Notes under the pieces: model-generated
Told to the model about the DNA's origin: nothing
The model's database searches: none
What the model saw: the letters and a program-made list of their open reading frames with translations, nothing else
Assembly: GCA_947085375.1 (NCBI GenBank)
Contig: CAMTWB010000007.1
Coordinates: 44,261 to 108,260 of the forward strand
DNA length: 64,000 nucleotides
Direction: 5' to 3'
DNA from: an uncultured delta proteobacterium
GTDB taxonomy: Bacteria; Desulfobacterota; Syntrophia; Syntrophales; CAMTWB01
Shown here: positions 16,193-20,866 of the stretch, piece by piece
Layout of the letters: each line of letters starts with the position of its first letter
Position numbering within the stretch: the stretch's first letter is position 1
Made by a program: the position numbers and the translations under genes

Positions 16193-17161
16193 TCACTTCT
16201 TCGTTTCCGCCGCTTCCTGTCGGAAACGCTCGTTGGCCTGCCTCATATAAGACCTGGCGTGATCCCGGCCGAAGGGCTGAGGCCCCATTTTTAGATCCGC
16301 CGTGATGAACTTACGAAACCTGTCATCCTTGGCCAAAATAGCCATCGTCCTTTCCAGCCGCGCCATCACCGCTTCAGGCAACCCCCTTGGCGCTGCCAGC
16401 ACCAGATACATCTCCACAGATTCGTCCCATCCCTGTTCCCGCAAGGTCGGCACATCGGTCAGTTGCGTCAGCCGCTCAGGGGTGGAGGCCGCCAACAACT
16501 TCAGGCGGCCGGATTGGACATACTCAAACAAGATGGCCCCTACATGGCCGATGTCGGCATGACCGCCCATCACGGCTGCGATTACCGAAGGGCCGCCGGT
16601 GCTCGGCATAAGCGCGATATTTACCCCTTCGCTCGCGGCGATGCGCTTGAGCGCGTCCCGGTCGTCGGAGCCCTGAAACATGTAGGTCAGCCCCTTTTTT
16701 TCCTTTTTCGCCCAAGCAAAGGCATCTTTCAAGGTCTTCCAGGGACGGTCAGGAGCACAGATAACCCCGCTTTGGTTGAGTCCCAACATGGATATGAAGT
16801 CAAAATCATCAAATTTGTAGGTTGTTTTCACAAAATGTGGCGAATAGGTAAAGGCCGCCGTTACCGATACCCCCAGGGTGTAGCCATCGGGCTTGGCGGC
16901 ACTTAGTTCCGCCGCCATCACGCTGCCGTGCGATCCGCCTGGGCTATTGGTCACCAGTACCGGTTGTCCCAACTGGTCACTCATCGCCTTTGCCAGCGCG
17001 CGCGTCAGCAAATCAATCTGGGCGCCCGGACCGGTCATCGTAAGCATCTTAATCGGCCGATTCGGGTATTCCGCCGCCAGCGCCGGAGGGGAAACGCACA
17101 CAACGGCAAAAACTCGCCAAATAGGCGCCTTCTTCGCAGGGACGAGTTCCGACTCGTCCAC
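16193..17161 (-). CDS. tctC: TTT periplasmic substrate-binding protein (Bug/TctC family)
   Basis: The Bug-family-like body runs from ...AAEYPNRPIKMLTMTGPGAQ. The ORF-track start at 17473 reads through a repeat element and the ilv leader region. I favour GTG at 17161, which gives a KK-hydrophobic-ALAAE signal peptide. ATG at 17206 is an alternative. Confidence 0.75.
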   Translation of the reverse strand: MDESELVPAKKAPIWRVFAVVCVSPPALAAEYPNRPIKMLTMTGPGAQIDLLTRALAKAMSDQLGQPVLVTNSPGGSHGSVMAAELSAAKPDGYTLGVSVTAAFTYSPHFVKTTYKFDDFDFISMLGLNQSGVICAPDRPWKTLKDAFAWAKKEKKGLTYMFQGSDDRDALKRIAASEGVNIALMPSTGGPSVIAAVMGGHADIGHVGAILFEYVQSGRLKLLAASTPERLTQLTDVPTLREQGWDESVEMYLVLAAPRGLPEAVMARLERTMAILAKDDRFRKFITADLKMGPQPFGRDHARSYMRQANERFRQEAAETKK

Positions 17162-17189
17162 CCCTATGCATAGGCCTTGCCGAAAGGCA

Positions 17190-17262
17190 TAGCATTTTAC
17201 TGCCATGACGAAGCATGGCCCTCCGAAAAACCCCTCTGAATATGTTTCGGAGTCAAGTGGGA
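17190..17262. repeat. Short structured repeat (TTTACnGCCATGACGrAGCATGGCCCTCCGAAAA ... TTTCGGAG); second copy at 29205-29300
   Basis: A core of about 35 nt is shared with 29205-29245. Both copies contain the CCATG-N6-CATGG and CTCCGAAA...TTTCGGAG inverted repeats. Confidence 0.7.
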
Positions 17263-17371
17263 CATAAGCATCCGGAGTTTTAACCGCTTGATCAAAATTG
17301 TCTGCTGCAAAAAAACCTTGACAGCGGGGAATCAAGTTGCTAGGTGTCGAATCAACGTGGAGATTTACCAG

Positions 17372-17455
17372 ATGCTTATGAACCGTGCTTTTGTAAAATA
17401 CATCGCCATAATTATTCTTGGGATAATTATACCCTTGCGCGGAGGGTACTGGTGA
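17372..17455 (+). CDS. Candidate ilv leader peptide (27 aa, MLMNRAFVKYIAIIILGIIIPLRGGYW)
   Basis: GGAG lies 9 nt upstream of the ATG. The peptide has 7 Ile, 3 Leu and 1 Val, with 9 Ile/Leu in an 11-residue stretch. It ends 25 nt before a terminator hairpin and lies upstream of ilvB. Confidence 0.5.
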   Translation: MLMNRAFVKYIAIIILGIIIPLRGGYW

Positions 17456-17479
17456 TGGTTTAGGCTTACACACAATCCT

Positions 17480-17518
17480 AAAAAAAACCGTTGCCAGGGT
17501 CGGCAGCGGTTTTTTTTT
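17480..17518 (+). terminator. Intrinsic terminator/attenuator hairpin (A8-ACCGTTGCC-loop-GGCAGCGGT-T9)
   Basis: 9-bp stem including one G-U pair, followed by a T9 run. It sits 31 nt upstream of the ilvB ATG. Confidence 0.6.
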
Positions 17519-17548
17519 GGCGTAAGTGCTACGAGTTGGGAGGGAGAT

Positions 17549-19276
17549 ATGAAGTTAACAGGGGCGCAGATATTTTTTCAAGCATTGAAGATGGAAGGGG
17601 TGGATACGATTTTCGGCTATCCCGGTGGCGCAGTGATGGACCTTTATGATGAAATGTACCGTCAGGACATCAGGCATATCCTGGTCCGCCACGAACAGGG
17701 AGGAGTCCACGCCGCCGACGGCTATGCCCGCAGTACCGGCAGGGTGGGAGTATCTCTCGTTACCTCCGGCCCCGGGGCGACCAATGCCGTAACCGGTATT
17801 GCGACAGCATTTCTCGATTCGGTTCCACTGGTGGTTTTCACCGGACAGGTGCCGACCAGATTCATCGGCAATGATTCTTTCCAGGAGGTGGATATCACCG
17901 GGATAACCCGTTCCTGCACTAAACATAACTTTTTGGTGAGGGACGTGAGACAACTGCCGCAGACTATTCGCCAGGCTTTTAATATTGCTCGCAGCGGACG
18001 TCCCGGTCCGGTCCTGGTGGACCTGCCAAAAGATGTAATCCAGTCGGTGGTGGAAAGGGCGGATATCGATTTTCCGTCTGATGTTCAAGAGGAGTTGCCA
18101 TCACGGAAATACCTGGAGATGCGCTGTCGGGAGGCGCTGGATCTACTGCTTAAGGCCGAAAAACCGCTTATCCTGTGCGGCGGCGGCATTTTGCGCGGCA
18201 AGGCCTCGGAGGAATTCCGAAAGCTTGTGACCCGATTAAATATACCGGTTACCAGCACTCTCATGGGCATCGGTTCCTTTCCCGGTCATTCTCCCCTCTG
18301 GCTGGGAATGGTGGGAATGCACGGCACTTACTACGCCAACATGGCCGTCAGCCATTGCGATCTCCTGTTTGCCGTGGGGGCCCGTTTTGATGACCGGGTT
18401 ACCTCCAAAGTGGAAGCCTTTGCCCCCCATGCCAAGATAATTCACGTAGACATTGATCCCCTGTCTCTGGAAAAGGTTGTTCGCACCCACGTTGCCATTC
18501 AAAGTGACTGTAAACCGGTTTTGCAACTGCTAAACGATATGCTGGACGAGGCCTTGCCTAAGCGCCAGGGTGATCAATATTCATCCTATTCACCCTATTC
18601 ACATTGGCGGGAGGAGATCGCCCGCTGGAAGAAAAAGGTCCCTCTTAGCTATTGTCGCAACGAAAACATCAAGCCCCAGTATGTGATCCAAAAACTGAAT
18701 AAAATTACCAATGGCCAGGCAATCATCACCACTGACGTGGGACAGCACCAGATGTGGGCGGCCCAGTTTTATAATTTTGACTATCCTGATACCTTCCTTA
18801 CCTCTGGAGGACTGGGCACTATGGGCTACGGACTGCCCGCGGCCATTGGCGCCCAGGTTGCTCATCCGGAGCGTCTGGTGGTCAACATTGCCGGTGACGG
18901 CAGCATTCAGATGAATATCCAGGAACTTGCCACCGCCGTTGAATATGACTTGCCGGTCAAGGTAATTATTTTGAATAACGGCTACCTGGGGATGGTGCGT
19001 CAGTGGCAGGAAATGTATTACGGAAAACGCTACTCTCAATCGGGAATCAGCGGCTGCCCGGATTTTGTCAAACTGGCCGCAGCCTACGGGGCGCTGGGGC
19101 TCCGTACCGACAGGCCCGACCTGGTGGAAGAAATCCTCCGGCAGGGCATTGCTCATCCGGGGGTGGCTGTTATGGATTTCCGTATCGAACCATTGGAGGG
19201 AGTATATCCGATGGTCAAGCCCGGGGCCCCCTTGACGGAAATGCTTCTGGGACAACAGACAGCGGCAATAATGTAA
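17549..19276 (+). CDS. ilvB: Acetolactate synthase large subunit (ThDP/FAD)
   Basis: 575 aa with conserved blocks GYPGGAVMDLYD, TSGPGATN and GLGTMGYGLPAAIGA. Confidence 0.92.
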   Translation: MKLTGAQIFFQALKMEGVDTIFGYPGGAVMDLYDEMYRQDIRHILVRHEQGGVHAADGYARSTGRVGVSLVTSGPGATNAVTGIATAFLDSVPLVVFTGQVPTRFIGNDSFQEVDITGITRSCTKHNFLVRDVRQLPQTIRQAFNIARSGRPGPVLVDLPKDVIQSVVERADIDFPSDVQEELPSRKYLEMRCREALDLLLKAEKPLILCGGGILRGKASEEFRKLVTRLNIPVTSTLMGIGSFPGHSPLWLGMVGMHGTYYANMAVSHCDLLFAVGARFDDRVTSKVEAFAPHAKIIHVDIDPLSLEKVVRTHVAIQSDCKPVLQLLNDMLDEALPKRQGDQYSSYSPYSHWREEIARWKKKVPLSYCRNENIKPQYVIQKLNKITNGQAIITTDVGQHQMWAAQFYNFDYPDTFLTSGGLGTMGYGLPAAIGAQVAHPERLVVNIAGDGSIQMNIQELATAVEYDLPVKVIILNNGYLGMVRQWQEMYYGKRYSQSGISGCPDFVKLAAAYGALGLRTDRPDLVEEILRQGIAHPGVAVMDFRIEPLEGVYPMVKPGAPLTEMLLGQQTAAIM

Positions 19277-19288
19277 GGAGAAATAAAG

Positions 19289-19777
19289 ATGCCGAACATG
19301 GAAACAGCTCTTGCGATTTTAGTTAACAACAAACCCGATGTTCTGGCCCGGATTGCCGGAACATTTAGTGGTCGCGGATTCAATATTGAAAGTATATCGG
19401 CCAATACAACCAGTGATCCCGCCCTGACCAAGATTGTCATTACCACTAACGATAGCCGGGAGGTAATAAAAAAGATTGAAAAACAGTTGAAAAATATCGT
19501 TGATGTGCTCAAGGTGGAGAATCTTTCCACCCAGAAATCGATTCACCGGGAGATGCTATTGGTTAGAATGAAGGCGGCAGGGGATAAAATCTCTTTGCTG
19601 GAAAAGATAATTGCCGAACGGGGATGGCGGCTGATAAGCAGGAACAGCGGCTGTTTTATTCTGGAAATTACCGGGGATCAGAAGGAAATCATGGCCGCCC
19701 TTGCCCTTTTGGAATCTTTTGGTATTGACGATTACACCAGAGGCGGGGTAGTGGCTTTGGAACTAGAGCAGAAATGA
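19289..19777 (+). CDS. ilvN: Acetolactate synthase small (regulatory, ACT-domain) subunit
   Basis: 162 aa with the ACT motif LVNNKPDVLARIAGTFSGRGFNIESI, directly after ilvB. Confidence 0.9.
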   Translation: MPNMETALAILVNNKPDVLARIAGTFSGRGFNIESISANTTSDPALTKIVITTNDSREVIKKIEKQLKNIVDVLKVENLSTQKSIHREMLLVRMKAAGDKISLLEKIIAERGWRLISRNSGCFILEITGDQKEIMAALALLESFGIDDYTRGGVVALELEQK

Positions 19778-19810: not shown

Positions 19811-20866
19811 ATGGCTAAAATTAATTTTGGCGGTGTGATTGAAGATGTGGTTACGGTGGACGAATTTCCGGTAGCAAAGGCCCGGAAATTACTCAGCACG
19901 GAGACGGTGGCCGTAATCGGTTACGGGGTCCAGGGACCTGGTCAGGCCCTTAATATGAGGGATAACGGAGTTGCAGTAATTGTGGGGCAACGGGAAGGCA
20001 CCCCTTCTTGGGATAAGGCGCAAGCGGACGGATTTGTGCCCGGCAAGACTCTTTTTACGCCGGAAGAAGCCGCCCAGAGGGGCACGATAATAATGTATCT
20101 CCTCTCTGATGCCGGTCAGAAGGCCATGTGGCCGGCCATCAAGCCTCAGCTCAAACCGGGCGACGCTCTTTATTTCTCACATGGATTCTCCATCACCTAC
20201 AAGGAGCAGACGGGGGTTATTCCGCCTGCGGACGTAGATGTTATTCTCGTCGCCCCCAAGGGCTCCGGAAGATCGCTGCGGACAAACTATCTGGCGGGCA
20301 GCGGTCTCAATTCCAGCTATGCCATCTTCCAGGATTACACCGGGCGGGCAAACGAGCGGGCGCTGGCGGTGGGGATGGCCATCGGTTCCATTTATCTCTT
20401 CCCGACTACCTTCGAAAAAGAAGTCGTGAGCGACCTGACCGGCGAACGGGGAGTGCTGATGGGCTGCCTGGCCGGGGTCATGGAGGCCCAATACAATATC
20501 CTCAGGAAACATGGCCATTCACCTTCGGAAGCATTCAACGAAACGGTGGAGGAACTGACCCAGAGCCTTATCATTCTGGTTGGGGAAAACGGGATGGATT
20601 GGATGTACGCCAACTGCAGCACCACTGCCCAGCGGGGCGCCCTGGACTGGAAGGGTCCCTTCCGGGATGCTGTTGCGCCGGTGTTCGAGAAGCTCTATGA
20701 GCAGGTAGTTTCCGGCGAGGAGACCAGAATCGTCCTTGCTGCTAACAGCGCCCCGGATTATCGAGAACGTCTGAACAAAGAACTAGAAGCCGTAAAACAG
20801 ATGGAAATGTGGCAGGCCGGCGCCGCGGTCCGGGCGCTGAGGCCGGAAAATCGCAGAACAAATTAA
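19811..20866 (+). CDS. ilvC: Ketol-acid reductoisomerase
   Basis: 351 aa with IGYGVQGPGQALNMRDNG (NADP site) and an IlvC C-terminal knotted-domain pattern. Confidence 0.9.
   Translation: MAKINFGGVIEDVVTVDEFPVAKARKLLSTETVAVIGYGVQGPGQALNMRDNGVAVIVGQREGTPSWDKAQADGFVPGKTLFTPEEAAQRGTIIMYLLSDAGQKAMWPAIKPQLKPGDALYFSHGFSITYKEQTGVIPPADVDVILVAPKGSGRSLRTNYLAGSGLNSSYAIFQDYTGRANERALAVGMAIGSIYLFPTTFEKEVVSDLTGERGVLMGCLAGVMEAQYNILRKHGHSPSEAFNETVEELTQSLIILVGENGMDWMYANCSTTAQRGALDWKGPFRDAVAPVFEKLYEQVVSGEETRIVLAANSAPDYRERLNKELEAVKQMEMWQAGAAVRALRPENRRTN

Follow-up and report, generated by a model that had tools for sequence, protein, structure and literature searches.

The closest described counterparts of the element reported here lie upstream of branched-chain amino-acid genes in other bacteria. 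The Corynebacterium glutamicum ilvBNC attenuator (ilvB-II), ilvB-OMG and the Leptospira ilvB motif were first recognised as lineage-specific RNA motifs and later proved to be attenuators (PMC10272879, PMC11857589), and in Geobacter the leuA gene is controlled by a T-box (PMC2700814). A survey published in 2013 found attenuators for isoleucine and valine not represented in Rfam, and suggested that amino-acid attenuators are of gammaproteobacterial origin and were spread by few transfers (PMC3766115). Here we describe the leader of the acetolactate synthase operon ilvBNC in a 64,000-nucleotide stretch of DNA (the window) from an uncultured bacterium of the order Syntrophales, Desulfobacterota. 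This leader is very probably a classical ribosome-mediated leader-peptide transcription attenuator of ilvBNC, tuned mainly to isoleucine. The initial annotation of the stretch had proposed that attenuation of the enterobacterial type operates at this locus, a proposal now supported by an antiterminator, by its geometry and by its conservation, as judged from sequence comparison and folding models.

Elements of the leader

Sequence reading, folding and comparison with relatives show the elements of the leader, their alternative pairings, how these are placed with respect to a ribosome footprint, and how far all of this is conserved. Read along the + strand, the region between tctC and ilvB contains, in this order, a promoter, a GGAG, the leader open reading frame (ORF), an A8 tract, a stem-loop, a U9 tract and ilvB. 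The features of the switch are as follows.

17318-17323, + strand: -35 hexamer TTGACA of the leader promoter, with TTGAC[AT] at the same place in 63 of the 63 related leaders that have enough upstream sequence
17338-17346, + strand: extended -10 element TG-c-TAGGTG, at a spacer of 17 nucleotides (nt) from the -35 hexamer
17359-17362, + strand: ribosome-binding site GGAG, 9 nt 5' of the leader ATG at 17372
17372-17455, + strand: leader ORF of 27 codons plus UGA, encoding the peptide MLMNRAFVKYIAIIILGIIIPLRGGYW, read from the sequence and kept in relatives
17401-17408, + strand: region 1, CAUCGCCA, 5' arm of the anti-antiterminator helix in the minimum free energy (MFE) and centroid folds
17402-17431, + strand: regulatory Ile codons 11, 13-15 and 18-20 (AUC, AUA, AUU, AUU, AUA, AUU, AUA)
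17431-17448, + strand: hairpin B, ACCCUU-GCGCG-GAGGGU, -7.8 kcal/mol, between the Ile codons and region 2
17449-17464, + strand: region 2, CUGGUGAUGGUUUAGG, antiterminator 5' arm, containing the leader stop UGA (17453-17455)
17477-17497, + strand: region 3, CCU-A8-CCGUUGCC-AG, antiterminator 3' arm and also terminator 5' arm
17480-17518, + strand: intrinsic terminator composed of A8, the stem CCGUUGCC/GGCAGCGG, a 6-nt loop and U9, from sequence and folding

The leader peptide has 7 Ile, 3 Leu and 1 Val, and all seven Ile fall within 10 consecutive residues, in a genome in which Ile accounts for 7% of the codons of long ORFs. The AUA codon, the least used Ile codon of this genome (16% of Ile codons), makes up three of the seven. 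Such rare codons could sharpen the response, a point on which we do not lean, since AUAAUUAU is also needed for hairpin A (see below). In the terminator, CCGUUGCC (17488-17495) pairs with GGCAGCGG (17502-17509) to form a G+C-rich stem of 8 base pairs (bp), one of which is a G-U pair, and the flanking A8 (17480-17487) and U9 (17510-17518) are able to extend this stem. The A-tract starts 24 nt past the leader stop codon, and the U-tract ends 30 nt 5' of the ilvB ATG at 17549, which is itself preceded by GGGAGGGAG. All elements listed in the initial annotation are present, with offsets of one or two bases. Its 27-codon ORF with a GGAG ribosome-binding site, 7 Ile, 3 Leu and 1 Val is as described. 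The -35 hexamer had been placed at 17317, nine Ile/Leu had been counted in 11 residues where there are eight (nine occur per 12), the stem had been given 9 bp, the hairpin had been set 25 nt downstream of the ORF and the distance to ilvB had been taken as 31 nt.

By its sequence, the leader promoter is a conserved promoter of the sigma-70 type, located about 20 nt 5' of the leader ORF. Of the 63 relatives, 55 have TA at the 17-nt spacing, and 47 carry TG at -15/-14. A consensus promoter scan did not call this promoter, which was recovered only via the comparison with relatives. Its conservation favours a transcription start near 17352 and ATG 17372 as the leader start. An RBS-like word (resembling a ribosome-binding site) precedes the chosen leader start in 51 of 66 relatives.

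Alternative pairings and proposed mechanism

The 176-nt leader folds with z = -3.5 relative to shuffles. Its free fold consists of a three-way junction (17401-17457, -21.7 kcal/mol) and the terminator. Within the junction, region 1 (CAUCGCCA, 17401-17408) is paired with UGGUGAUG (17450-17457), while hairpin A (17408-17431, -5.3 kcal/mol) is formed by two palindromic Ile-codon blocks, AUAAUUAU, paired together. Hairpin B, the third element, has 86% of its cells paired in relatives, with changes on both sides in three of its four pairs. Region 2 (CUGGUGAUGGUUUAGG) is in addition complementary to CCU-A8-CCGUUGCCAG (17477-17497), which comprises the terminator 5' arm and part of its loop. The resulting antiterminator hairpin (17449-17497, -16.5 kcal/mol) and the terminator (-17.3 kcal/mol for the core, -21.8 kcal/mol with the A/U extension) are mutually exclusive.

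The influence of a ribosome on this choice was modelled by masking a 30-nt footprint in a transcript cut at 17501, i.e. before the terminator 3' arm. A footprint on Ile-15 or on Ile-20 leaves the cut transcript with the antiterminator as its MFE structure, and a footprint on the stop codon abolishes the antiterminator. The last Ile codon sits 18 nt 5' of region 2. A mutually exclusive antiterminator, the part of an attenuator that the initial annotation had not yet located, is accordingly present, and in the masked folds it is blocked by a ribosome at the stop codon.

From sequence and folding models we infer the actual stalling, the termination and the dependence on the amino acid, which may proceed as follows. 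As RNA polymerase transcribes the 27-codon leader, a ribosome would follow and translate it. With ample charged tRNA-Ile, this ribosome would reach the UGA at 17453 and cover region 2 (17449-17464), whereupon the terminator (17480-17518) would fold and transcription would end 30 nt before ilvB. With too little charged tRNA-Ile, the ribosome would instead stall on the seven Ile codons (codons 11-20; 17402-17431), and in doing so would occupy region 1, melt the helix between regions 1 and 2 and set region 2 free. Region 2 could then capture the terminator 5' arm (17477-17497) at a time when the 3' arm has yet to be transcribed, and with the antiterminator formed no terminator would arise, so that the polymerase would read into ilvB, ilvN and ilvC. 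If the leader is not translated at all, region 1 (17401-17408) would be expected to hold region 2, and the terminator would form.

Conservation in the order Syntrophales

Of 41 genomes of this order, 38 have an ilvB orthologue. Among 30 loci fetched, from 24 families of the order, 29 carry a small ORF with a run of Ile or Val and a terminator upstream of ilvB. Two types can be distinguished. Type A, to which the leader in the window belongs, has the peptide core IAIIIxGIIIP, an end at GGNUGAUGGUUU and the terminator AAACCGUURCC...GGYAACGGUUUU, and type B has VVVVIV...GTAAR and the terminator GCCGCGGG...CCCGCGGC. In seven relatives (L005, L017, L019, L022, L023, L029 and L030) a type-B, Val-rich leader precedes the sole ilvB, so that within the order the leader type must have been exchanged or have diverged. 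Type-B leaders often have a second terminator after the first. In masked folds of type-B leaders, the expected antiterminator was recovered in only one of seven (L005), and a pairing of CYGCUGCUC with GAGCCGCGG that was found by eye, with eight of nine pairs, is left unproven.

A strict type-A DNA pattern, made up of the stop-codon segment and the terminator, was searched in 185,579 species genomes and returned 60 stretches, 59 of which are from metagenome-assembled genomes. The labels of these 59 are mostly Syntrophales, Syntrophaceae, Syntrophus, Smithellaceae or Syntrophobacterales, the remaining ones (Deltaproteobacteria, Thermodesulfobacteriota, Proteobacteria, one Acidobacteriota and one Caldisericales) being unresolved or other. 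An ilvB lies 20-215 nt downstream in 57 of the 60 stretches, and the others end without downstream sequence. With these 59 further genomes and the 29 of 30 relatives, the conservation of an Ile-rich ORF and terminator before ilvB, on which the initial annotation had made its proposal depend, has been borne out. The sixtieth match, in Pragia fontium (L056, 7932-7995), has no Ile ORF before it and is probably a chance match to a terminator; this locus ends 2 nt past the match, and the downstream gene is outside the sequence. A looser type-A pattern was found only within the order and in none of 387 genomes of the phylum outside it (sample of 401). The leader scanner recorded no such leader at 74 ilvB loci of other phyla, among the matches listed, versus 23 of 30 in Syntrophales, which shows that a leader of this kind is not a default feature of ilvB.

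An alignment was made of 66 unique type-A leaders. The terminator is paired in 100% of the cells, and one position carries double changes from A-U to G-C in 14 sequences. The base at this position can in every case also pair, as U-A or U-G, with the stop-codon U in region 2 (U71). Alignment positions U64, U67, G68 and G69, all in region 2, are invariant in the 66 sequences, and non-coding bases are among them, the UGG just after the stop codon being the same in 66 of 66. The stop codon itself varies between UGA, UAA and UAG, and all three keep the pairing with GUU(A/G). The antiterminator core is paired in 94.7% of the cells, and in individual folds the antiterminator is predicted for 63 of the 66 leaders, compared to 218 of 1320 controls (16.5%) in which region 2 had been shuffled.

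An ORF with an Ile/Val run is retained in all 66 type-A relatives, with a median of 8 Ile per leader. In 57 leaders the end of this ORF coincides with the conserved stop; in two it comes 12 nt before that stop, and in seven 8 nt after it. The two early ends (L025 and L083) result from an earlier in-frame stop. In the seven late ones (L028, L033, L049, L053, L071, L076 and L078) the frame runs through UGAUGG and the peptide ends in ...GGWVMV, with the RNA unchanged. The distance from the last Ile to the stop is exactly seven codons in 47 of the 66, and the N-terminal parts are unrelated. This fixed spacing, combined with unrelated N-termini, fits a device for positioning a ribosome and not a functional peptide. 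That the ORF nevertheless encodes a functional small hydrophobic peptide, for instance a membrane micro-protein, with the hairpin merely as its terminator, is a reading to which we give hardly any credence. The hydrophobic core, the conservation of IAIIIxGIIIP at the amino-acid level and the existence of trans-acting leader peptides such as peTrpL (PMC7298713) would be in line with it. Against this, the peptides range from 15 to 100 residues and are variable outside the Ile run, the residues conserved at the C-terminus are encoded by segments that take part in RNA pairing, and the seven frameshifted relatives have a different peptide end with the RNA sequence kept. Likewise, Val takes the place of Ile in a related subfamily, and the element is always found immediately 5' of ilvB.

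Several results weigh against an isoleucine-responsive attenuator and need to be considered together. The -10 hexamer of the leader promoter, TAGGTG, is weak. At equilibrium the terminator with its A/U extension always wins in the full-length leader, even with a ribosome on the Ile codons, which implies that the decision, like that of the classical trp attenuator, must be kinetic (co-transcriptional). When no ribosome is placed on the transcript cut at 17501, its MFE structure is already the antiterminator, which beats the helix between regions 1 and 2. Both the MFE and the centroid fold of the leader in the window contain this helix, the MFE of the cut transcript lacks it, and an equivalent pairing is predicted in only 46 of the 66 relatives. 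Lastly, the antiterminator arms are near-invariant and show no compensatory double changes. As both arms hardly vary, covariation is silent here, and the support for the antiterminator is conservation and thermodynamics, not covariation.

Other leaders in the same genome

The whole 2.52-Mb assembly was scanned on both strands for mini-ORFs with an RBS-like word and at least 8 Ile/Leu/Val per 10 residues, followed by a hairpin and a T-run within about 110 nt downstream. The scan yielded only two, one before each acetolactate synthase large-subunit gene, which cannot be coincidence. The second, on contig C19 (66648-66743 in forward coordinates, - strand, outside the window), encodes the Leu/Val-rich peptide MISNINAGGNLLILGYVLVVLVAKGAAARCL in the style of type B. 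It has two tandem terminators, and the second acetolactate synthase operon, which consists of a large subunit (TIGR00118, 611 bits) and a small subunit, follows about 170 nt downstream. The segment GGGGCUGCUGCU within this ORF is complementary to the 5' arm of the first terminator at 11 of 12 positions. To judge from their leader peptides, the two acetolactate synthase operons probably listen to different amino acids.

A further leader with three consecutive Trp, MFSNLSLLNWWWQGTKEGLRRR, is found on contig C25 (1725-1793, + strand, outside the window) upstream of trpE-trpG-trpD. It has a TTGACA promoter of the conserved style, two tandem terminators and a predicted antiterminator. A stretch of about 45 nt, CTTCGCAAAAAGTCCGGATGCGGCGTTRCGCTAAATCCCTCGTCACT, is common to C19 and C25 just 3' of both terminator pairs, and has the appearance of a dispersed, REP-like repeat that was inserted to separate the attenuator from its gene. 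The ilv leaders and the Trp leader in one genome indicate that leader-peptide attenuation is a general strategy of this organism.

These leaders also bear on the question of whether the RNA upstream of ilvBNC is read by something other than a ribosome, i.e. whether it is a riboswitch, a T-box-like sensor of tRNA or a protein-binding leader in which the ORF is incidental. Such a switch would account for the strong structure (z = -3.5) and for a conservation at the nucleotide level that includes non-coding bases, and the leuA T-box is known from Geobacter (PMC2700814), of a lineage once grouped with this one as Deltaproteobacteria. Even so, we consider it very improbable. In a permissive scan of Rfam 15 (E up to 10), the best hit was Thr_leader (RF00506; 27.1 bits, E = 0.01, whole model), which does not reach the gathering score of 55 and is itself a leader-peptide attenuator. 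The other hits were to unrelated families at E of at least 0.76, and none reached its threshold; the T-box and riboswitch readings were rejected on this ground. Moreover, all 66 relatives keep the ORF with its Ile/Val run although its N-terminal part varies freely, it always ends in or next to region 2, with the seven-codon gap between Ile and stop in 47 of 66, and the amino acid that is enriched is a product of the pathway controlled. The Leu/Val and Trp leaders of the same genome are likewise found before matching operons.

Operon and neighbouring genes

The genes downstream and upstream of the leader are as follows.

17549-19276, + strand: ilvB, acetolactate synthase large subunit (TIGR00118, 790.9 bits against a cutoff of 538)
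19289-19777, + strand: ilvN, acetolactate synthase small subunit (TIGR00119, 123 bits against a cutoff of 57)
19811-20866, + strand: ilvC, ketol-acid reductoisomerase (TIGR00465, 318 bits against a cutoff of 226)
16193-17206, - strand: true extent of the divergent tctC, a TTT-family binding protein, outside the switch and forming the left limit of the intergenic region

The identities of ilvB, ilvN and ilvC are all above the curated NCBIfam cutoffs. Downstream of ilvC follow a repeat element and then pilM, which starts 735 nt further on; the operon under control is therefore ilvBNC, with ilvC as its last gene.

On the opposite strand, a tctC ORF of 426 amino acids (16193-17473, - strand) crosses both the leader and its promoter. 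The Pfam TctC domain comprises residues 68-312 of a 337-residue version that starts at ATG 17206, a signal-peptide-like segment follows the alternative start GTG 17161, and the DNA of leader and promoter is also conserved where relatives lack tctC at this place and have ilvN2 as the upstream neighbour. On these three grounds the 426-residue model is over-extended by about 90-105 codons, and the true 5' end is 17206 or 17161. The initial annotation had suspected such an over-extension, and the domain start at residue 68 of the shorter version agrees with it.

Only in the genome of the window is tctC the upstream neighbour, as part of a divergent tctCBA cassette, which points to a rearrangement in this genome, where one acetolactate synthase operon is on another contig than the other. 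In eight relatives (L002, L007, L008, L010, L011, L013, L016 and L018), ilvB2-ilvN2 is located directly upstream of ilvBNC and is co-directional with it. The type-A leader sits between ilvN2 and ilvB in these relatives, with the exception of L013, which has no leader.

This arrangement raises the question of whether the terminator is a constitutive or insulating one, e.g. a relic of an ancestral ilvB2-ilvN2, with a mini-ORF that senses nothing and ilvBNC expressed by leaky read-through. The co-directional operon upstream in the eight relatives would speak for it, as would the symmetry of the A8/U9-flanked stem, which could act in both directions, and the preference for the terminator in every full-length fold. 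The terminator is, however, positioned 3' of a conserved promoter and a leader ORF and not directly after ilvN2, and in the genome of the window the upstream gene is divergent, which leaves nothing upstream to terminate. A conserved antiterminator that overlaps the stop codon would, in addition, have no role. A constitutive or insulating terminator is highly unlikely in our estimate, and the attenuator remains the preferred explanation.

Comparison with known attenuators

In the full-text literature searched, no description of an ilv attenuator from Syntrophales or deltaproteobacteria was found; an attenuator survey from 2010 that possibly covers the lineage fell outside that literature. The element might represent an uncatalogued, order-wide RNA family, the Syntrophales ilvB leader, in which an Ile-only leader of ilvBNC is paired with a Leu/Val leader of the second acetolactate synthase operon, next to a Trp leader of trpEGD; we put this proposal forward tentatively and consider it somewhat less likely than not. 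If true, leader-peptide attenuation would be old and general in a lineage of Desulfobacterota, which would run counter to the view of a gammaproteobacterial origin with few transfers (PMC3766115).

For ilvBNC the analysis provides a testable regulatory annotation in a poorly studied syntrophic, sulfite-/sulfate-reducing group that is known mostly from metagenomes, and it corrects the over-long gene model of tctC. The alignment of 66 sequences could seed an RNA family model, and in this way avoid the mis-annotation of such leaders as hypothetical small proteins or within neighbouring ORFs. No principle is changed by these results. They add one more lineage to a picture in which leader-peptide attenuation of ilvB is widespread, yet each lineage has either built its leader afresh or let it diverge until no likeness can be recognised.

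The leader resembles ilvL of ilvGMEDA and ivbL of ilvBN in Escherichia coli and Salmonella in its ORF of branched-chain codons, in the predicted alternative pairings of regions 1-4 and in the terminator before the first gene. As with ilvBN and ilvGMEDA in E. coli, each acetolactate synthase operon has a leader of its own, here one that is Ile-rich and one that is Leu/Val-rich. E. coli ivbL uses Val and Leu, whereas the Syntrophales ilvBNC leader is almost purely an Ile sensor. It also differs from ilvL and ivbL in having its stop codon inside the antiterminator 5' arm, and in belonging to another lineage. A blastn search (word size 11) with 17350-17520 gave no match in 5,426 complete E. coli genomes. 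The likeness to Thr_leader consists in a codon-run hairpin, a spacer and a terminator with an A-run before it and a U-run after it, but the match is mostly to the terminator, and both the regulated operon and the amino acid sensed are different. With the T-box of Geobacter leuA the leader shares an RNA-level, termination-based control of branched-chain amino-acid genes, although a T-box senses uncharged tRNA directly and without a leader ORF, and the leader in the window has no T-box match in Rfam. With ilvB-II, ilvB-OMG and Leptospira ilvB it shares a branched-chain-rich upstream ORF and a terminator ahead of ilvB(NC). These, however, are other sequence families, from Corynebacterium (ilvB-II), Leptospira (ilvB) and 'various bacterial phyla' (ilvB-OMG) (PMC10272879), while the Syntrophales family has an invariant triad of its own, composed of GGNUGAUGGUUU, AAACCGUURCC and GGYAACGGUUU. 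The mechanism is a classical one, and the sequence family that carries it appears to be new.

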